13,931 nt of DNA, from contig NJBF01000064.1 in assembly GCA_003144275.1 (NCBI GenBank), positions 1-13,931 of the forward strand, given 5' to 3'. Origin of the DNA: Candidatus Heimdallarchaeota archaeon B3_Heim (GTDB lineage: Archaea > Asgardarchaeota > Heimdallarchaeia > Hodarchaeales > Hodarchaeaceae). Below the pieces are notes generated by a model. It was not told the DNA's origin. It did not search any database and saw only the letters and a program-made list of their open reading frames with translations. Position numbers and translations under genes: made by a program. Of the stretch, positions 3,628-10,840 are shown one piece after another (the first letter of the stretch is position 1; each line of letters begins with the position of its first letter).

Positions 3628-3934
3628 GATCAAATCTGCATAAATTCTTTCAAAATTGCCAAGTAAATAGCAAAACAACTGCAAAAAGGTTGAGGAAATT
3701 AGACATTGACCTGGAAATGGGAGAAAATTTATCTTATCTCAGGAATGGACGAAAATCAATTTGGTAAATCCTCTCTTCATCCACTACACATTCCCAATAG
3801 CTTAAGGTACAGATGAACTATTGGAGTAATCCAAAAGCTCTCCTCCTTCTTTTTTTGTTGTAGGTTGACCTTCCTTGAAATGGTTGTGATATAATGATAT
3901 TATTCATTTCTAATCTTGAATTAAGTGATGAATT

Positions 3935-4213
3935 TCGGAACGGATATGTTAAGTAAGATGTCAAGTATTTTATAGCTGAGAAATTAATAATTAGACTCGG
4001 ACTCAATGTTTATCCCAGAACTTCTTCTTCATCATAAGCGAATCCCTCCTGAAATCTTGAATTCTTTATAACAATTTGCCGAAAATCAGTATTGGGATAC
4101 CAAGGATTTCCATCAAATTGCTCAAGAATTAGAAGAATTTATCCATAATTTTCCCTCGGAAGAAAATTTAGATGAATTATGGTATGTTTTGATAAAAATT
4201 CTTTTCTTTGCTG
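3935..4213 (+). repeat. Diverged direct repeat, copy 1 (upstream region + 5' end of TPR gene)
   Basis: Aligns to 6508-6786 at offset 2573. Shares upstream tcggaac...atgttaagtaagatg. The coding part has 27 differences in 207 nt by manual count (~87% identity). Confidence 0.95.
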
Positions 4214-5864: not shown

Positions 5865-6005
5865 TCATAAGACTAGCACCCTTGTAGATAGTATCCTATT
5901 CGGGATAGCTAGCCGAAATGTGTAACTGAGTGGGGTTATATTATGGGACGAAACGGAAATCCTCCTATCGTCCCCTACACATTTTGCATAGATGAACGGT
6001 TTAGA

Positions 6006-6077
6006 GGAACTCATGACTAAATTTGTCAGATAACTCGTTAGAAGCGAGTTCTGGACAGGATGAGTCACACATCCGCT
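6006..6077 (-). ncRNA. Orphan omega-RNA (reRNA) 3' scaffold
   Basis: 31 nt identical to the tnpB 3' end (6047-6077 = 10714-10744). The hairpin has compensatory changes and the pseudoknot strand agtca is kept. The 5' and 3' limits are uncertain. Confidence 0.75.
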
Positions 6078-6192
6078 TCCAGAGAAAACCTATTCAAGGA
6101 TTGAATAAGTCTTCGAGGGACTCCTTGTTCCTATGGAGTTGACATTATCTCTTGATTCCTCAAATTTCAGTATCCACTGGTATTACATTCCT

Positions 6193-6228
6193 CGCCTTTG
6201 ACGGGTAACTCATCTAACGTAGTTACGA
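6193..6228 (-). pseudogene. tnpB: tnpB fragment just after RuvC-I (VTTLDELPVKG vs VTTSDGLLVKG)
   Basis: 32/36 nt identity to 10124-10159. Weaker similarity continues to ~6170 (cagtgg). Confidence 0.85.
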
Positions 6229-6507
6229 AGGAGCAACACCCAACCAGATTGTTTGGATTTAGTTCATCACCTCTATTTACTTGTATGGGAAGAAGAACCC
6301 CTTTTAAGGATGTTAGAGAGAGAGCGGTGAATATGACGAATACGACTTTGTCGGACAAATCATGCCATGGATTGGTTACTGGATTGTATGTTAAAACAGG
6401 TTTAGAACTAGGCATAATTTACACTGTGTCGGTTTTAAAATTCCGATAGGAATTTCCTGTATCCTTATACAAAGATAGAGAACCAATCAAAAATTCCGTG
6501 TTGATTA

Positions 6508-6786
6508 TCGGAACATAGATGTTAAGTAAGATGCTAAGGATTTTATAGTTGTAAGAAAAATCATTGGACTTGGAATCAATGTCTATCCCAGAACTCCTTC
6601 TTCATCATAAAAGGATACATCCAGAGATCTTGCAGTCATTACTTCAGTTTGCCGAAAATCAATACTGGGATACCAAGGATTTCCATAAAATTGCTCAAGA
6701 ACTAGAGGAATTCATACATAATCTTCCCTCGGAAGAAAATTTAGATGAATTATGGTATGTTTTGGTAAAAATCCTTTTCTTTGCAG
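6508..6786 (+). repeat. Diverged direct repeat, copy 2 (upstream region + 5' end of the intact TPR gene)
   Basis: Partner of 3935-4213. Includes a 41-nt perfect tract (6724-6764 = 4151-4191). Confidence 0.95.
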
Positions 6787-7715
6787 GAGATTTAAAGAAA
6801 CTTAGTGATGTATATACGTCAATTACTGCAACCAGTCAGGGGATTCCTGGGGTGCGGACCTTCTATGCGCTCGCCTTAACCTTTCAAGGCCATTCTGAAG
6901 AGGGTTTAAGAATTCTAAATAATACGAACATTGATGAAATCAGTGATCCCCAGATACGAATTGAAGCGTTAGGTATCAATCTTTTTTTCCATTCAATTCG
7001 TCGTGATCAGAAAAAAGTCGATGATCTTTATCAAAAGATAATTCATCTTTCTGAAACTGTTCCGGAACTCACTGAAAGGCAGAAAGCTCATCTACTTCCT
7101 TGGGCATATATTCGAAAAGCTTATTCGATTCGTGGACAAACCACCCGAGCTTTAGATCTTTTAAACAAAGTTCAAACGGAATTAAACATCTTTCCACATC
7201 GTTTCTTTCAGATTATGACGAGCTTAAGGATTGGCCATATCTATCACATTAGTGGAGACTTTAATAAGGCAATAGAGCTTTATGATCAAGCTATTGACCT
7301 TGCAATGGAAGTCCAAAGCTGGCATCTTCTTTCGATGATCTATAACCGAGTGGGGTTTATTTTGACTGCTCAGAGGCAGGTGAATGAAGCTAGAGGATAT
7401 TTTCAGGATTCTTTGGATTATGCAAAGAAATCTGGTGCAAGATGGTTAACCGTTGGCCCTCTGGTAAATTTAATCAGATGGAAGTTAAATCAAGGGAGGA
7501 TTGACGAAGCTATAGAGGATTATCATACATTTGCTAAAATCACTGAATCTGTTGGCGATGAACAGGAACAATTTTACGCTCTCCTTGCTCTTGCCGAACT
7601 CTATGCCCAAATTGATGATATGCCAAAGTCGAAATACTACTATTCCAAAGGGGTTAAATTAGGGTTAAAGCTTGGTTTATTTCGTCTGGTAGATCAATCA
7701 AAAGAGAATAACTAG
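6579..7715 (+). CDS. Tetratricopeptide-repeat protein
   Basis: TPR-like units such as LRIGHIYHISGDFNKAIELYDQAIDLA and IYNRVGFILTAQRQVNEARGYFQDSLDYA. ATG 6579 preferred because the duplicate copy keeps this ATG but has TTA in place of the TTG at 6564. Confidence 0.85.
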   Translation: MSIPELLLHHKRIHPEILQSLLQFAENQYWDTKDFHKIAQELEEFIHNLPSEENLDELWYVLVKILFFAGDLKKLSDVYTSITATSQGIPGVRTFYALALTFQGHSEEGLRILNNTNIDEISDPQIRIEALGINLFFHSIRRDQKKVDDLYQKIIHLSETVPELTERQKAHLLPWAYIRKAYSIRGQTTRALDLLNKVQTELNIFPHRFFQIMTSLRIGHIYHISGDFNKAIELYDQAIDLAMEVQSWHLLSMIYNRVGFILTAQRQVNEARGYFQDSLDYAKKSGARWLTVGPLVNLIRWKLNQGRIDEAIEDYHTFAKITESVGDEQEQFYALLALAELYAQIDDMPKSKYYYSKGVKLGLKLGLFRLVDQSKENN

Positions 7716-7748: not shown

Positions 7749-9287
7749 TCAATTTTCAGTTGTTTGGTACTGCACGTACAGTTTTTCTAGACGTTTGGTG
7801 TCAAGGTTCATACTTAATTCCTCCATTACCTCATAGATATAGTTTAAATCTGCTTTGTGGATAATATTCGAAAGATTCATTTGTTGTAGAATCTTCTGCG
7901 ATATGGGGCGCTTAGCTTTCCAATAGACAAAAGTATTAAGAAATTTCAAAACTATAGGATGCTGTAGTAAAGCATAGAAGAGAAAAGCTTCCTCTTTAGA
8001 TGAAGTAGGGAGGAAATAACTGGTATCATCAAGAACTACAGGCTTATTTTGAATAGGTCCAATTAATCGAAAATGAAGCTGTTTATGAAGACCTGAGACT
8101 CCGATTTTCCAATGAGTAAATGTATAAGGCCCCACACCAAATACTGAGAACGCAGGTTTCCCCTTATAGATTGAGCTTCCTCGTTTCTCTAGTAAAGGTT
8201 TATTACGATTTAAATATGTCCATGTCTTTGGAGCAAGTCCTTTGATTTTTGAGGTATCCTCACCAACGAATTTTTGAGGGACTATCAACCAGCGATGGGT
8301 AAATTTTACCTCATTATGAGCCAGATCAGTACTTTTGAGGAGTGGATAGAGATACGTATCCTCAAGATTCACCTTCTCATTTAGTCCATTAACATAAGAA
8401 TTTTCTTCATTTTTCAAAATCATTATTTTCGCGGCGTCGTGTTTTATACCAGATCTCCATGGGATAGAAAATTTTCCATGAAGGAAATTCATTTCTTGAA
8501 AAGACGACATGTCATTAACTAAGAGTTTATCAATTATACCAAGAGTGGAAGAGGGATTAGTTGAAGTTAGTGAGGAAAAGACAGGACATACGTTGGCTGT
8601 TCTCCCTGGTTTTATAGAACAGGTGAGTAAACACGCATCAACCGATGCGTTAAAATTAGTCGTAGCGTCAATACGGTTTATTGTTATAGTTGATACCGAG
8701 AGTCGATTCGTATTAACATATTTAAAGATTTTTCGTGCGACACTTACCTTACAGAGAATAGCTAATATCCCTGATGAATCACTCATTGCTTCAAGTAACT
8801 TTAAAATCATCCATTCTGAAATATCAAAATTACTCTTCCCAGTGATAGAATCTAAACCTGTAAACTTATGTATATTACTTTTTCGTGGAAGATTTTTGCC
8901 TTTAAGCAATCCTTGTTCTGATGAGGTGACCCATGGCAAATTTCCAAGTATTAAAATAGGTGCTGTTAATTTAGAAATAAATTCGTGCCAATTTTTATTA
9001 AAAAAATTCGTGTGTTCAAGAAAAACGACTTTTTCTTTCTTGAGCTTACCAATCTCCTGATTTAATTGTCTTAAATATTCGTCATTGAGGTCAAATCCAT
9101 ATATCTTTGTATCTGGAAACTTTCTAGTGGCTGCAAGAACGAAAGAACCCGTTCCGCAAGTAGGTTCAATAATTGTGGAAGGAGAGATCCCATCAGATTT
9201 TAATTTTGTGACAATAGTTTCAGCAAGAATCGTGGGGGTTTGGAAATCTCCGTACTCCTTAATGTACTTTCCCTTGTGTGAGTTCAT
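7749..9287 (-). CDS. Amino (N4-C/N6-A) DNA methyltransferase, solitary; resembles NspV-type modification methylases (family call from memory)
   Basis: GDFQTP (motif X), IEPTCGTGSF (motif I), GNLPW (motif IV), and C-terminal WRSGIKHD / LYPLLKS TRD-like motifs. ATG 9287 preferred because the 30 upstream codons lack a conserved look and overlap the element end motif. Confidence 0.85.
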   Translation of the reverse strand: MNSHKGKYIKEYGDFQTPTILAETIVTKLKSDGISPSTIIEPTCGTGSFVLAATRKFPDTKIYGFDLNDEYLRQLNQEIGKLKKEKVVFLEHTNFFNKNWHEFISKLTAPILILGNLPWVTSSEQGLLKGKNLPRKSNIHKFTGLDSITGKSNFDISEWMILKLLEAMSDSSGILAILCKVSVARKIFKYVNTNRLSVSTITINRIDATTNFNASVDACLLTCSIKPGRTANVCPVFSSLTSTNPSSTLGIIDKLLVNDMSSFQEMNFLHGKFSIPWRSGIKHDAAKIMILKNEENSYVNGLNEKVNLEDTYLYPLLKSTDLAHNEVKFTHRWLIVPQKFVGEDTSKIKGLAPKTWTYLNRNKPLLEKRGSSIYKGKPAFSVFGVGPYTFTHWKIGVSGLHKQLHFRLIGPIQNKPVVLDDTSYFLPTSSKEEAFLFYALLQHPIVLKFLNTFVYWKAKRPISQKILQQMNLSNIIHKADLNYIYEVMEELSMNLDTKRLEKLYVQYQTTEN

Positions 9288-9355
9288 AAACAGTATCACA
9301 AAGTAATTCATTAAGAATCTTCCTCGTAATAATGCTCTTGTCGAATTCCTTTCCA

Positions 9356-9377
9356 CATGATCAAATTTGTCTGACAA
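9356..9377 (+). repeat. Left end motif catg-atcaa-atttgtc-t-gacaa (TIR-like)
   Basis: 16/22 match to the reverse complement of 10758-10779. The same consensus occurs at 6012-6033 and 6348-6369. Confidence 0.75.
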
Positions 9378-9462
9378 CGATATTTATTAGTATAGGCTAG
9401 GAAGAAAAAAGGTTCATTTTCGTCACATTTGTTATTTTCACTGATCTCTCTCTGTCTCGAGC

Positions 9463-9468
9463 TTATAA
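9463..9468 (+). promoter_or_regulatory. TATA-like box (TTATAA) for tnpB
   Basis: 22-27 nt upstream of ATG 9490, consistent with a leaderless archaeal transcript. Confidence 0.45.
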
Positions 9469-9489
9469 GAGCGAGTGAGCCTTACTGGA

Positions 9490-10788
9490 ATGGGAATGCG
9501 TACCAAAAAACACTCTCACCCCCAGTTAGCTATCCGAATGCAGATGAAACCACGGCCCATTTTTACTGATTTGTGCACCTGCGCCAAAAATCTGTATAAT
9601 CGTGCCACCTATGAGGTGCGCCAGGAATTCTTTAAGACAGGGAAATGGATACAATATATTAGCCTCTATCATCGCCTCAAGCACGAACCAGTGTATCTAG
9701 CATTAAAGGACATTTCGGATAGTTATTTACCGCAACAAGTCCTCCGGCAGGTGGAACAAATCTGGCGGAGCTTTTTTAACGGACTAAAAGCATGGAAAAC
9801 CGATCCGACCAAATTTCAAGCCCGTCCCCGAGAGCCGAGGTATAAACCCAAGAATGGGCTGCACATGCTGAACTTTCCCCGTCCACAGGTCCGAATTCGG
9901 GAGAAACAGATTCTTTTTGCTCGGAATCTCATGGTGCGCGGCTTTCCCACTTTTTCACTCGGAACCCTTCCATTAACTGCAGAAACGTGTGTGGGAGCTC
10001 GATTGGTACCGTATTATGATCGATTTGTGGTAGAATTACTCTATGAAGTGCAAGTTCACCCTTTTCCCACCACTGATTCGTCTTCTCCCCGAGCTATGGG
10101 AATAGATCTTGGTCTTAACAACCTCGTAACTACGTCAGACGGGTTACTCGTCAAAGGCGGGGTAGTTAAAACTATTAATCAGTGGTATAACAAACAACTT
10201 GCTCATTATCGGTCGATTGCAGCCACTCACAATCAACAGTTCTCCACTCACCGGATTCAAAGTCTTCAGCGAGGGCGGATGAACCGTCTGCAGAATTTCT
10301 TCCATCAAACCTCTCGGAGGATTATCACTTACTGTTTACAGCACAATATCGATACATTGGTCATCGGTTACAATGCGAGGTGGAAACAGCACTGTAACTT
10401 AGGAAAACGCACCAATCAGTCTTTTGTTCAAATCCCCTTCCTTAAATTCGTTCAGATGCTCGAGTATAAAGCGAAACTTGTGGGGATGACGGTAGTGCGA
10501 GTAAACGAGGCGTATACTTCCCAACAATGTAGTCAGTGTGGTTATGTAGACAAACGTAACCGAAAATCGCGCGGGTGTTTCTGTTGTCGTAAATGTGGTC
10601 ATCACCTGAATGCTGATTATAATGCCGCCCGTAATATCCTTCAGCGGTATATTAACCGCAGCCAAGTAATCCCTACAGTCAGTTCACCTTCATCGGTGGC
10701 TCACTTGCCGGATAGCGGATGTGTGACTCATCCTGTCCAGAACTATTTGCTAAATAGTTGTCTGACAAATCAAGTCATAACTCCATAA
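9490..10788 (+). CDS. tnpB: RNA-guided endonuclease TnpB with a rearranged RuvC-II site
   Basis: Residues numbered from GTG 9475: GIDLG (D211), LVIGY (G298 at the canonical Glu position), VNEAYTS (E345), Zn finger CSQC/CRKC, and NADYNAARNI (D381). Start is ATG 9490 or 9496. Confidence 0.96.
   Translation: MGMRTKKHSHPQLAIRMQMKPRPIFTDLCTCAKNLYNRATYEVRQEFFKTGKWIQYISLYHRLKHEPVYLALKDISDSYLPQQVLRQVEQIWRSFFNGLKAWKTDPTKFQARPREPRYKPKNGLHMLNFPRPQVRIREKQILFARNLMVRGFPTFSLGTLPLTAETCVGARLVPYYDRFVVELLYEVQVHPFPTTDSSSPRAMGIDLGLNNLVTTSDGLLVKGGVVKTINQWYNKQLAHYRSIAATHNQQFSTHRIQSLQRGRMNRLQNFFHQTSRRIITYCLQHNIDTLVIGYNARWKQHCNLGKRTNQSFVQIPFLKFVQMLEYKAKLVGMTVVRVNEAYTSQQCSQCGYVDKRNRKSRGCFCCRKCGHHLNADYNAARNILQRYINRSQVIPTVSSPSSVAHLPDSGCVTHPVQNYLLNSCLTNQVITP
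10640..10784 (+). ncRNA. omega-RNA scaffold overlapping the tnpB 3' end; guide predicted from ~10780-10785 onward
   Basis: Stems: gcggt/accgc; ggatg/catcc (10717-10733); long bulged hairpin 10734-10767 with core aactattt/aaatagtt. Loop tgtgact pairs with agtcata (10773-10779) as a pseudoknot. The 5' limit is a guess. Confidence 0.8.
10758..10779 (-). repeat. Right end motif (reverse complement tatg-acttg-atttgtc-a-gacaa)
   Basis: Inverted partner of 9356-9377. Lies inside the omega-RNA scaffold. Confidence 0.75.
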
Positions 10789-10840
10789 CAGGACTATAAG
10801 ATTTTTATAAACTCACGTTTACATTTTAGAAGACTGATAT

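Follow-up and report, generated by a model that had tools for sequence, protein, structure and literature searches.

TnpB-only elements are the commonest insertion sequences of archaea, and their movement without a linked transposase has largely been assumed rather than shown. They are classically filed under IS200/IS605, a group characterized by a Y1 HUH TnpA, by insertion 3' of a conserved target-adjacent motif of 4-5 nt, and by asymmetric hairpin ends that are not terminal inverted repeats. In another group, IS630 and Tc1, insertion duplicates a TA inside CTAG. This study concerns a TnpB-only element at positions 9356-10778 of a 13,931-nucleotide (nt) contig of Candidatus Heimdallarchaeota archaeon B3_Heim (assembly GCA_003144275.1, contig NJBF01000064.1). 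The whole 13.9-kb contig is hereafter called the window. The element is real and recently mobile in a Hodarchaeales archaeon, and the known members of its family are restricted to Hodarchaeales.

Described members of the IS607 family lack terminal inverted repeats (TIRs) and have GG as their core (PMC6188088). Their ends bear scattered subterminal motifs, and upstream of tnpB they encode a serine transposase TnpA with a MerR-like HTH and a resolvase domain. The core dinucleotide is shared without duplication, and excision is scarless (PMC6188088; 10.1101/2023.11.20.567912). The window element resembles the IS607 family (IS607, IS1535, ISC1926, ISXfa1, and CboIStron) in having a TnpB of the alternative-Glu, D-hydrophobic-G, NADxN lineage, one short core that the empty site and each junction have in common, no other sequence being duplicated, a nearly fixed right-flank base, and a right-end guide RNA, which is putative here. 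With the IS1341-type TnpB-only elements, PATEs, and standalone omegaRNA miniature inverted-repeat transposable elements (MITEs) of the IS200/IS605 group, it shares a content of tnpB only and gene-less derivatives, more numerous than the full copies, that retain the ends as well as the guide-RNA module. Unlike these, it has no Y1 partner in the genome or in relatives, its ends form an inverted pair instead of two hairpins on the same strand, and the left flank contains no pentanucleotide resembling a target-adjacent motif (TAM). Symmetric ends, a terminal repeat within the guide-RNA scaffold (predicted here), and the alternative Glu are likewise features of the Fanzor1 and Fanzor2* transposons, which have TIRs as well as target-site duplications (TSDs), and of the IS630-linked TnpBs (DDE-6 branch). 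From these the element differs in its DLG instead of DPG, its prokaryotic host, the lack of a detectable DDE transposase, and its nearest TnpBs, which are IS607-linked.

TnpB-only elements, guide-RNA-bearing MITEs and PATEs, the alternative-Glu (Ealt) active site, and DDE transposons with symmetric ends linked to TnpB (PMC10691335) are already known. The literature searched yielded no description of an Asgard TnpB family with TIRs, an AT-in-CATG core, and no linked transposase.

Results

Boundaries and ends of the element

The host genome (G000) comprises 3.95 Mb in 103 contigs and is 94% complete; G013 denotes the closest sister genome, and C-numbers denote contigs. A query of window positions 9340-10800 returned 48 matches genome-wide, with similarity spanning 9356 to 10778. 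End-anchored BLAST, with extraction of the flanks, placed the breakpoints of 11 left ends and more than 30 right ends at exactly these bases. The full-length element is therefore window 9356-10778 on the plus strand, 1423 bp, with tnpB as its single gene. An earlier annotation made from the letters alone (the sequence-only reading) had placed the element at 9356-10788. Its start stands, whereas 10788 is the stop of the open reading frame (ORF), and the last 10 nt belong to the flank, as part of the putative guide. The features of the full-length copy are as follows.

9356-10778, plus strand: non-autonomous TnpB element; similarity to more than 30 copies breaks at both limits, and GC content is about 45% against about 35% in the flanks
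9356-9378, plus strand: left TIR, CATGATCAAATTTGTCTGACAAC, containing the palindrome TTGTCTGACAA
9475-10788, plus strand: tnpB ORF, 437 aa from GTG, extending past the right end of the element into flanking sequence; D211, E345, and D381 predicted as catalytic; two CxxC pairs as a zinc finger
10122-10159, plus strand: internal piece of the RuvC-I coding region with the hairpin GTAACT..AGTTAC, kept in every miniature copy
10663-10778, plus strand: conserved 3' RNA module, putative omegaRNA scaffold, common to full-length and miniature copies
10756-10778, plus strand: right TIR, GTTGTCTGACAAATCAAGTCAT, doubling as the last part of the RNA module
10779-10798, plus strand: right flank, AACTCCATAACAGG..., directly past the right end, putative guide of the window copy's omegaRNA; the flanks vary between copies

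Across copies, the end motif reads CATG, seven variable bases, and TTTGTC-N-GACAA. The reverse complement of the right-end consensus, together with its nearly fixed next base, is CATGACTAAATTTGTCAGACAAC; the left end CATGATCAAATTTGTCTGACAAC agrees with it at 20 of 23 positions and with the window copy's own right end at 16 of 21. The likeness between the ends, in inverted orientation, reaches the very tips, beyond the internal palindrome TTGTC-N-GACAA. The ends are therefore true TIRs and more than two copies of a palindrome. Inverted 22-bp end motifs had been proposed as transposon ends; they proved to be 23-bp repeats that recur in every family copy examined.

The host genome holds about six full-length and more than 25 miniature copies, some of them 98-100% identical. 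Ends of the form CATG + 7 nt + TTTGTC-N-GACAA bound the family copies in seven genomes of the genus (about 20 copies), and tnpB invariably begins 110-140 nt downstream of the left end. In cold-seep metagenomes, of which the contigs of four runs were examined, contigs enter many different flanks exactly at 9355 and 10778.

The nearest homologues of the tnpB product carry the names Candidatus Hodarchaeales or Heimdallarchaeota, so the host is an Asgard archaeon, which the sequence-only reading had raised as a condition. The 16S of the genome is archaeal.

Two kinds of rearranged ends were also observed. Micro-elements of 33 bp consist of the left and right TIRs fused at the common palindrome (CATGATCAAATTTGTCTGACAAATTTAGTCATG). 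They occur in the host genome (C8:64499-64531, C35:1462-1494, and C50:11147-11179) and in two of three metagenome matches (L150:1114-1146 and L152:399-431), and may have arisen by deletion between two direct palindromes or through the action of the mobilizing recombinase. At G000 C82:62599-62640, a MITE right end and a common CATG run into roughly the first 14 nt of a left end, which is left over either from an insertion into the terminal CATG of another copy or from a structure resembling a junction.

Target site

Clean empty sites of two insertions were found in the sister genome. The empty site at G013:C150 has one CATG, and the MITE at G000 C86:22165-22527 has CATG on both sides. The empty site at G013:C72 has one TATG, and the MITE at G000 C44:7889-8247 has TATG on the left and CATG on the right. 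Because of this last pair of junctions, a simple 4-bp duplication is ruled out; the right-junction C is the element's own. In the window copy, the left junction reads CATG and the right one CATA. Over the two clean empty sites and the window copy, the central AT is the sole dinucleotide common to all junctions and targets. Insertion is thus into C/T-AT-G/A, usually CATG.

A C directly precedes ATG in 30 of 36 left flanks, and a G directly follows CAT in 47 of 52 right flanks. The flank statistics gave no further conservation; in particular, the left flank has no conserved motif of 4-5 nt beyond one base. At position -2, T occurs in only 2 of the 36 left flanks, and the right end always has T there. 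In an IS607 element, self-cleavage is prevented by a single discriminating position at which the TAM (TGGG) and the right end (TCGG) differ (10.1101/2023.11.20.567912). By analogy, the T pattern resembles the discrimination of self and non-self TAMs by an IS607 TnpB, a likeness that is suggestive only.

The window's own site (9340-9356 and 10779-10800) was compared with three relatives, G013:C7, G003:C45, and G018:C177. The element is absent from all three, and 20-33 extra nt are present, ending in ATAGTCA(Y)TG.. like a decayed right-end tip. The locus was therefore rejected as a clean empty site; it may have been occupied previously, or a flank deletion may have followed insertion. Among the cold-seep contigs, none bridged an empty site or a circle junction, and the joints that were found only reflect MITE structure. 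A restriction-enzyme-like route of cutting and ligation through CATG was also considered and found no support.

The 5' part of an ORF resembling an N6-adenine DNA methyltransferase (7749-9377, minus strand) ends inside the left TIR, and the CAT of the element's CATG may be the start codon ATG of this ORF. The insertion at C67:12462 is also on a start codon. Targeting of CATG may often strike gene starts.

The TnpB protein

The ORF at 9475-10788 matches OrfB_IS605 (2e-18), the Cas12f1-like TNB (3.4e-24), and NCBIfam guided_TnpB (223 bits); translation likely starts from the ATG at 9490 (MGMRTKK). In the alignments, D211 lies in DLG, and the canonical RuvC-II Glu position is occupied by G298 (VIGYN). 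The alternative Glu, E345, is invariant and lies six residues ahead of the first CxxC, and D381 lies in NADYN. The D-E-D triad (D211, E345, and D381) is invariant or near-invariant. By its domains and triad the product is a TnpB/OMEGA RNA-guided nuclease, with nuclease activity being predicted. The ratio of nonsynonymous to synonymous substitution rates (dN/dS) among tnpB paralogues of the host genome is 0.09-0.17; the copies are under purifying selection, and the protein has therefore been kept.

The active-site rearrangement is known as 'RIIr-5' (PMC10691335) or 'Ealt' with D-hydrophobic-G (PMC10711439) and is usual in a very large prokaryotic clade. It is present in all 70 relatives collected, the Helicobacter pylori IS607 TnpB among them. 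In each of the 71 aligned sequences, RuvC-I has D-L/I/F-G and the Glu is at its alternative position. The fingerprint of Fanzors and pro-Fanzors at RuvC-I is DPG (PMC10711439), which was found neither in the window TnpB, with its DLG, nor elsewhere in the 71 sequences. A profile search of solved structures placed Cas12f (6e-28) and ISDra2 TnpB (4e-20) ahead of the Mimivirus Fanzor2 L79 (5e-16); Fanzor1 was not among the matches.

Phylogeny and linked genes

In the maximum-likelihood tree, 14 Asgard sequences form a clade with 100/100 support and without a linked TnpA: five from Hodarchaeales with the ends described here and nine of Loki or Heimdall origin. Its sister is a clade of 57 sequences with scattered linkage to a serine TnpA. 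These are Ealt TnpBs, often linked to an IS607 serine TnpA, and include H. pylori IS607. The description as a Fanzor-like TnpB thus stands for the alternative-Glu RuvC and finds no support for the link to Fanzors, given the DLG, a signature common to the prokaryotic clade, and the position in the tree as sister to IS607-linked TnpBs.

Related loci were collected from species-representative genomes (n = 80). In 17 of them, an IS607-family TnpA (NF033518, 150-194 bits) lies directly upstream of tnpB; these TnpBs are at most 39% identical to that of the window. Clustering of the genes adjoining tnpB at the 80 loci gave no recurrent Y1-like or other transposase besides IS607 TnpA. In the Lokiarchaeial subclade, the ends are asymmetric and bear a subterminal CCYTTTAGGG, nearer to classical IS607, and no inverted repeats were found in these sister elements (42-45% identical). 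The aloposons of Heimdallarchaeum (PMC8813620) were also considered and are unrelated.

RNA module and putative guide

The last 116 nt (10663-10778) can be aligned between full-length and miniature copies. RNAalifold predicted 25 pairs in this module, 7 of them with compensatory changes. In one predicted helix, an upstream TGTC pairs with the GACA of the right TIR; the putative omegaRNA scaffold therefore includes the terminal repeat. Adjoining the right repeat on its inner side lies a hairpin whose sequence varies and whose pairing is kept across copies. The right-end omegaRNA is the putative guide RNA of TnpB. By analogy with characterized TnpB and IS607 systems (PMC10711439; bioRxiv 10.1101/2023.11.20.567912), the right flank would be its guide.

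Miniature copies

A second, gene-less member of the family lies in the window at 6012-6369. It fits the description of a MITE: it is short, has no ORF, and carries the ends of the 1.4-kb element, and more than 25 copies of ~360 bp exist. Its features are as follows.

6012-6369, minus strand: gene-less miniature copy, 358 bp, of an older subfamily (73-76% identical to the C82 and C57 copies)
6348-6369, minus strand: left inverted repeat, CATGGCATGATTTGTCCGACAA
6190-6228, minus strand: retained internal piece, 39 nt of the tnpB RuvC-I coding region
6013-6077, minus strand: right end and RNA module, 86% identical to 10714-10778 (the last 65 nt of the full element)
5993-6012, minus strand: flank past the right end, GAGTTCCTCTAAACC..., putative different guide

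The stretch had been taken for a mini-copy with a preserved scaffold and a different guide. It indeed has both ends and the RNA module, the latter at the identity given above, next to a different flank that is the putative guide. Positions 6180-6228 are 82% identical to 10124-10172, and the 39-nt core (6190-6228) reaches 87%.

At least three MITE subfamilies were distinguished, among them one of 362 bp. One has five copies at 98-100% identity and another four copies at 96-98%, at different loci, and transposition has therefore been recent. The subfamilies are only ~60% alike overall, yet the 37-50-nt internal tnpB piece is 83-89% identical in each. The internal piece (10122-10159 and 6190-6228) seems to be under selection in non-coding copies. 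In the cold-seep contigs, the retained internal piece and the right end are 10-20 times deeper than the rest of the element.

Search for the transposase

Only 119 nt separate the left end from tnpB, and no transposase domain was found in any ORF of the window. The absence of a linked transposase, claimed in the sequence-only reading, extends to the ~20 family copies of the seven genomes, none of which is adjoined by one. That reading had also named standard IS605 ends with a Y1 tnpA and a missing left inverted motif as what homologous loci should have if it were wrong; neither such ends nor a Y1 tnpA were seen at these loci, and the left inverted motif was present.

The host genome contains no match to Y1 TnpA (PF01797) or to the IS630-type DDE_3 (PF13358). 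Cross-mobilization by the host's own DDE elements was rejected, since its two IS4/IS5-like families and its IS701-like family have unrelated inverted repeats. When all end motifs of the host genome were paired, no pair enclosed anything but tnpB or a MITE. The only pair longer than an element, C8:61897-64531, was rejected as a carrier of the enzyme: a truncated left end and a 33-bp micro-element flank a host M48 peptidase gene there, and no transposase lies between them. A metagenome-wide scan with the exact left-end motif yielded three contigs, none with a transposase and two with 33-bp micro-elements. An identical homologue in six contigs represents one locus in several samples, and its neighbourhood contains no transposase.

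The only serine recombinase of the host genome is a resolvase adjoining a putative reverse transcriptase on contig C2, and it is unrelated. On this small contig (G000 C2:5532-7731), the resolvase/invertase-type recombinase (183 aa) adjoins this putative reverse transcriptase, an ORF of 416 aa, and two copies of a structured-looking repeat of ~170 nt lie upstream of the pair. The module may be retron-like or resemble a diversity-generating retroelement.

A second TnpB-only family was observed in the same genome. It is ~1660 bp long, encodes a protein of 426-430 aa with an N-terminal HTH_OrfB, and has about eight copies that are ~88% alike, together with short derivatives and no TnpA in the genome. 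Its copies include G000 C38:57938-59598, C96:23643-25294, C82:50635-52295, and C61:21532-23187. Unrelated to the TnpB element is a 300-nt direct repeat with 83% identity at window 3912-4211 and 6485-6784, the second copy of which overlaps the start of a TPR-protein ORF (6564-7715).

Discussion

When the right and left ends are joined, they form an almost perfect palindrome around AT, GACAAATTTAGTC-AT-GATCAAATTTGTC. This is the look expected of a dimer-bound crossover site of a serine recombinase; it is also compatible with a DDE enzyme and a 2-bp duplication. With one AT core and no other duplication, the ends look more like a symmetric version of IS607 than like a captured TIR transposon of the eukaryotic type. 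Tentatively, and at a confidence that falls somewhat short of even, we favour a non-autonomous derivative of the IS607 lineage with symmetric ends and an AT core, which is moved in trans, most likely by an IS607-type serine transposase. A recombinase encoded elsewhere would pair the symmetric ends and exchange strands at the 2-bp AT core, and the element would be excised precisely and inserted at another AT. An IS607-type serine transposase would be the probable enzyme, given its association with the sister TnpB lineages. TnpB and its omegaRNA would then cut the vacated site, where a CAT-containing motif has been rejoined to the guide-matching flank, and repair from a sister copy would restore the element. 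The miniature copies could use both functions in trans.

Several observations weigh against an IS607-type mover. The element has no tnpA in cis and so far none in trans: IS607-type TnpA was not found in the 94%-complete host genome, and no TnpA adjoins any of the ~20 family copies in the seven genomes. Among 22 genomes of the genus, five, including G013 (C54:7024-7572 and C56:28818-29330), contain an IS607 TnpA, and these IS607 copies carry other TnpB subfamilies and lack the ends described here. Instead of GG, the core is the AT within CATG, and the element has 23-bp TIRs where IS607 has unrelated ends. A DDE cut-and-paste transposon would just as well show TIRs, abundant MITEs, and a palindromic duplication of 2 bp. 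In addition, omegaRNA expression, the TAM, and nuclease activity are predicted from sequence.

The element could instead be a MITE-like member of an undescribed DDE (or other) cut-and-paste family that has captured tnpB, with a transposase that binds the 23-bp ends and duplicates the 2-bp AT. This would be a prokaryotic parallel to the capture by Fanzors that the sequence-only reading implied. The inverted repeats, the palindromic target with a 2-bp core, the many MITEs, and the lack of a serine TnpA linked to the window family all suit such a transposon, and IS630-type DDE-linked TnpBs with symmetric ends are on record (PMC10691335). On the other hand, the host genome has no DDE_3/IS630 gene, the core is AT and not TA, and the ends of the three DDE families of the host are unrelated. 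The paired ends enclose only tnpB or MITEs, and the sister TnpB lineages are linked to a serine TnpA and not to DDE. Homing by a conserved TnpB would also require scarless excision, which is rare with DDE cut-and-paste. We consider this capture possible but on balance unlikely. Doubtful, too, but a serious candidate, is a recombinase of a kind new to TnpB, or a serine transposase now adapted to symmetric crossover sites like those of resolvases. It is improbable that the family is immobile in its host, its copies being relics that an extinct transposase or recombination had dispersed, with TnpB kept for another role. The failure to find a mobilizer in the host genome would fit relics; the 98-100% identical MITEs at different loci, the insertions absent from the sister genome, and the many different flanks at both ends in cold-seep contigs would not.

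The remaining explanations appear very improbable. One is an IS200/IS605 (IS1341-type) element that a Y1 HUH TnpA would mobilize in trans in single-stranded form; the apparent inverted repeats would then be its two subterminal hairpins. In its favour are the classical filing of TnpB-only elements and the palindrome TTGTC-N-GACAA, which lies 11 nt inside both ends with a pyrimidine as central base on the top strand at both. The host genome has no Y1_Tnp, however, and no Y1-like neighbour recurs at the 80 related loci; the inverted likeness of the ends continues beyond the palindrome to the tips, and the left flank shows no conserved 4-5-nt motif beyond one base. Equally remote is a direct ancestor or close relative of eukaryotic Fanzors in an Asgard genome. 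The Asgard host would suit it, the alternative-Glu RuvC fits the pattern E-6 residues-CxxC, and the inverted repeat is predicted to lie inside the RNA scaffold, as reported for Fanzor1 (PMC10711439). Against it, DPG is replaced by D-L/I/F-G in all 71 sequences, the profile of solved structures ranks Cas12f and ISDra2 TnpB above Fanzor2 L79 with Fanzor1 missing, and the origin of Fanzors has been placed in cyanobacterial IS607 'pro-Fanzors' (PMC10711439). On present evidence, the family bears no direct weight on the origin of Fanzors.

With sharp symmetric ends, an AT-in-CATG target, empty sites in a sister genome, recent MITEs, and intact TnpBs under selection, the family lends itself unusually well to testing how such elements move. 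Within prokaryotic TnpB elements, inverted ends that are symmetric have arisen, as has a putative guide RNA of which the terminal repeat forms a part; so far, such features have been discussed for eukaryotic Fanzor transposons. Should a new kind of recombinase, or a serine transposase adapted to symmetric sites, be responsible, this would be the first prokaryotic TnpB lineage living wholly as a TIR-bounded, trans-mobilized element, and an independent Asgard parallel to the entry of Fanzors into TIR/TSD transposons. Once named, the mobilizer would either widen the range of IS607-type serine transposases or reveal a new transposase partner of TnpB.

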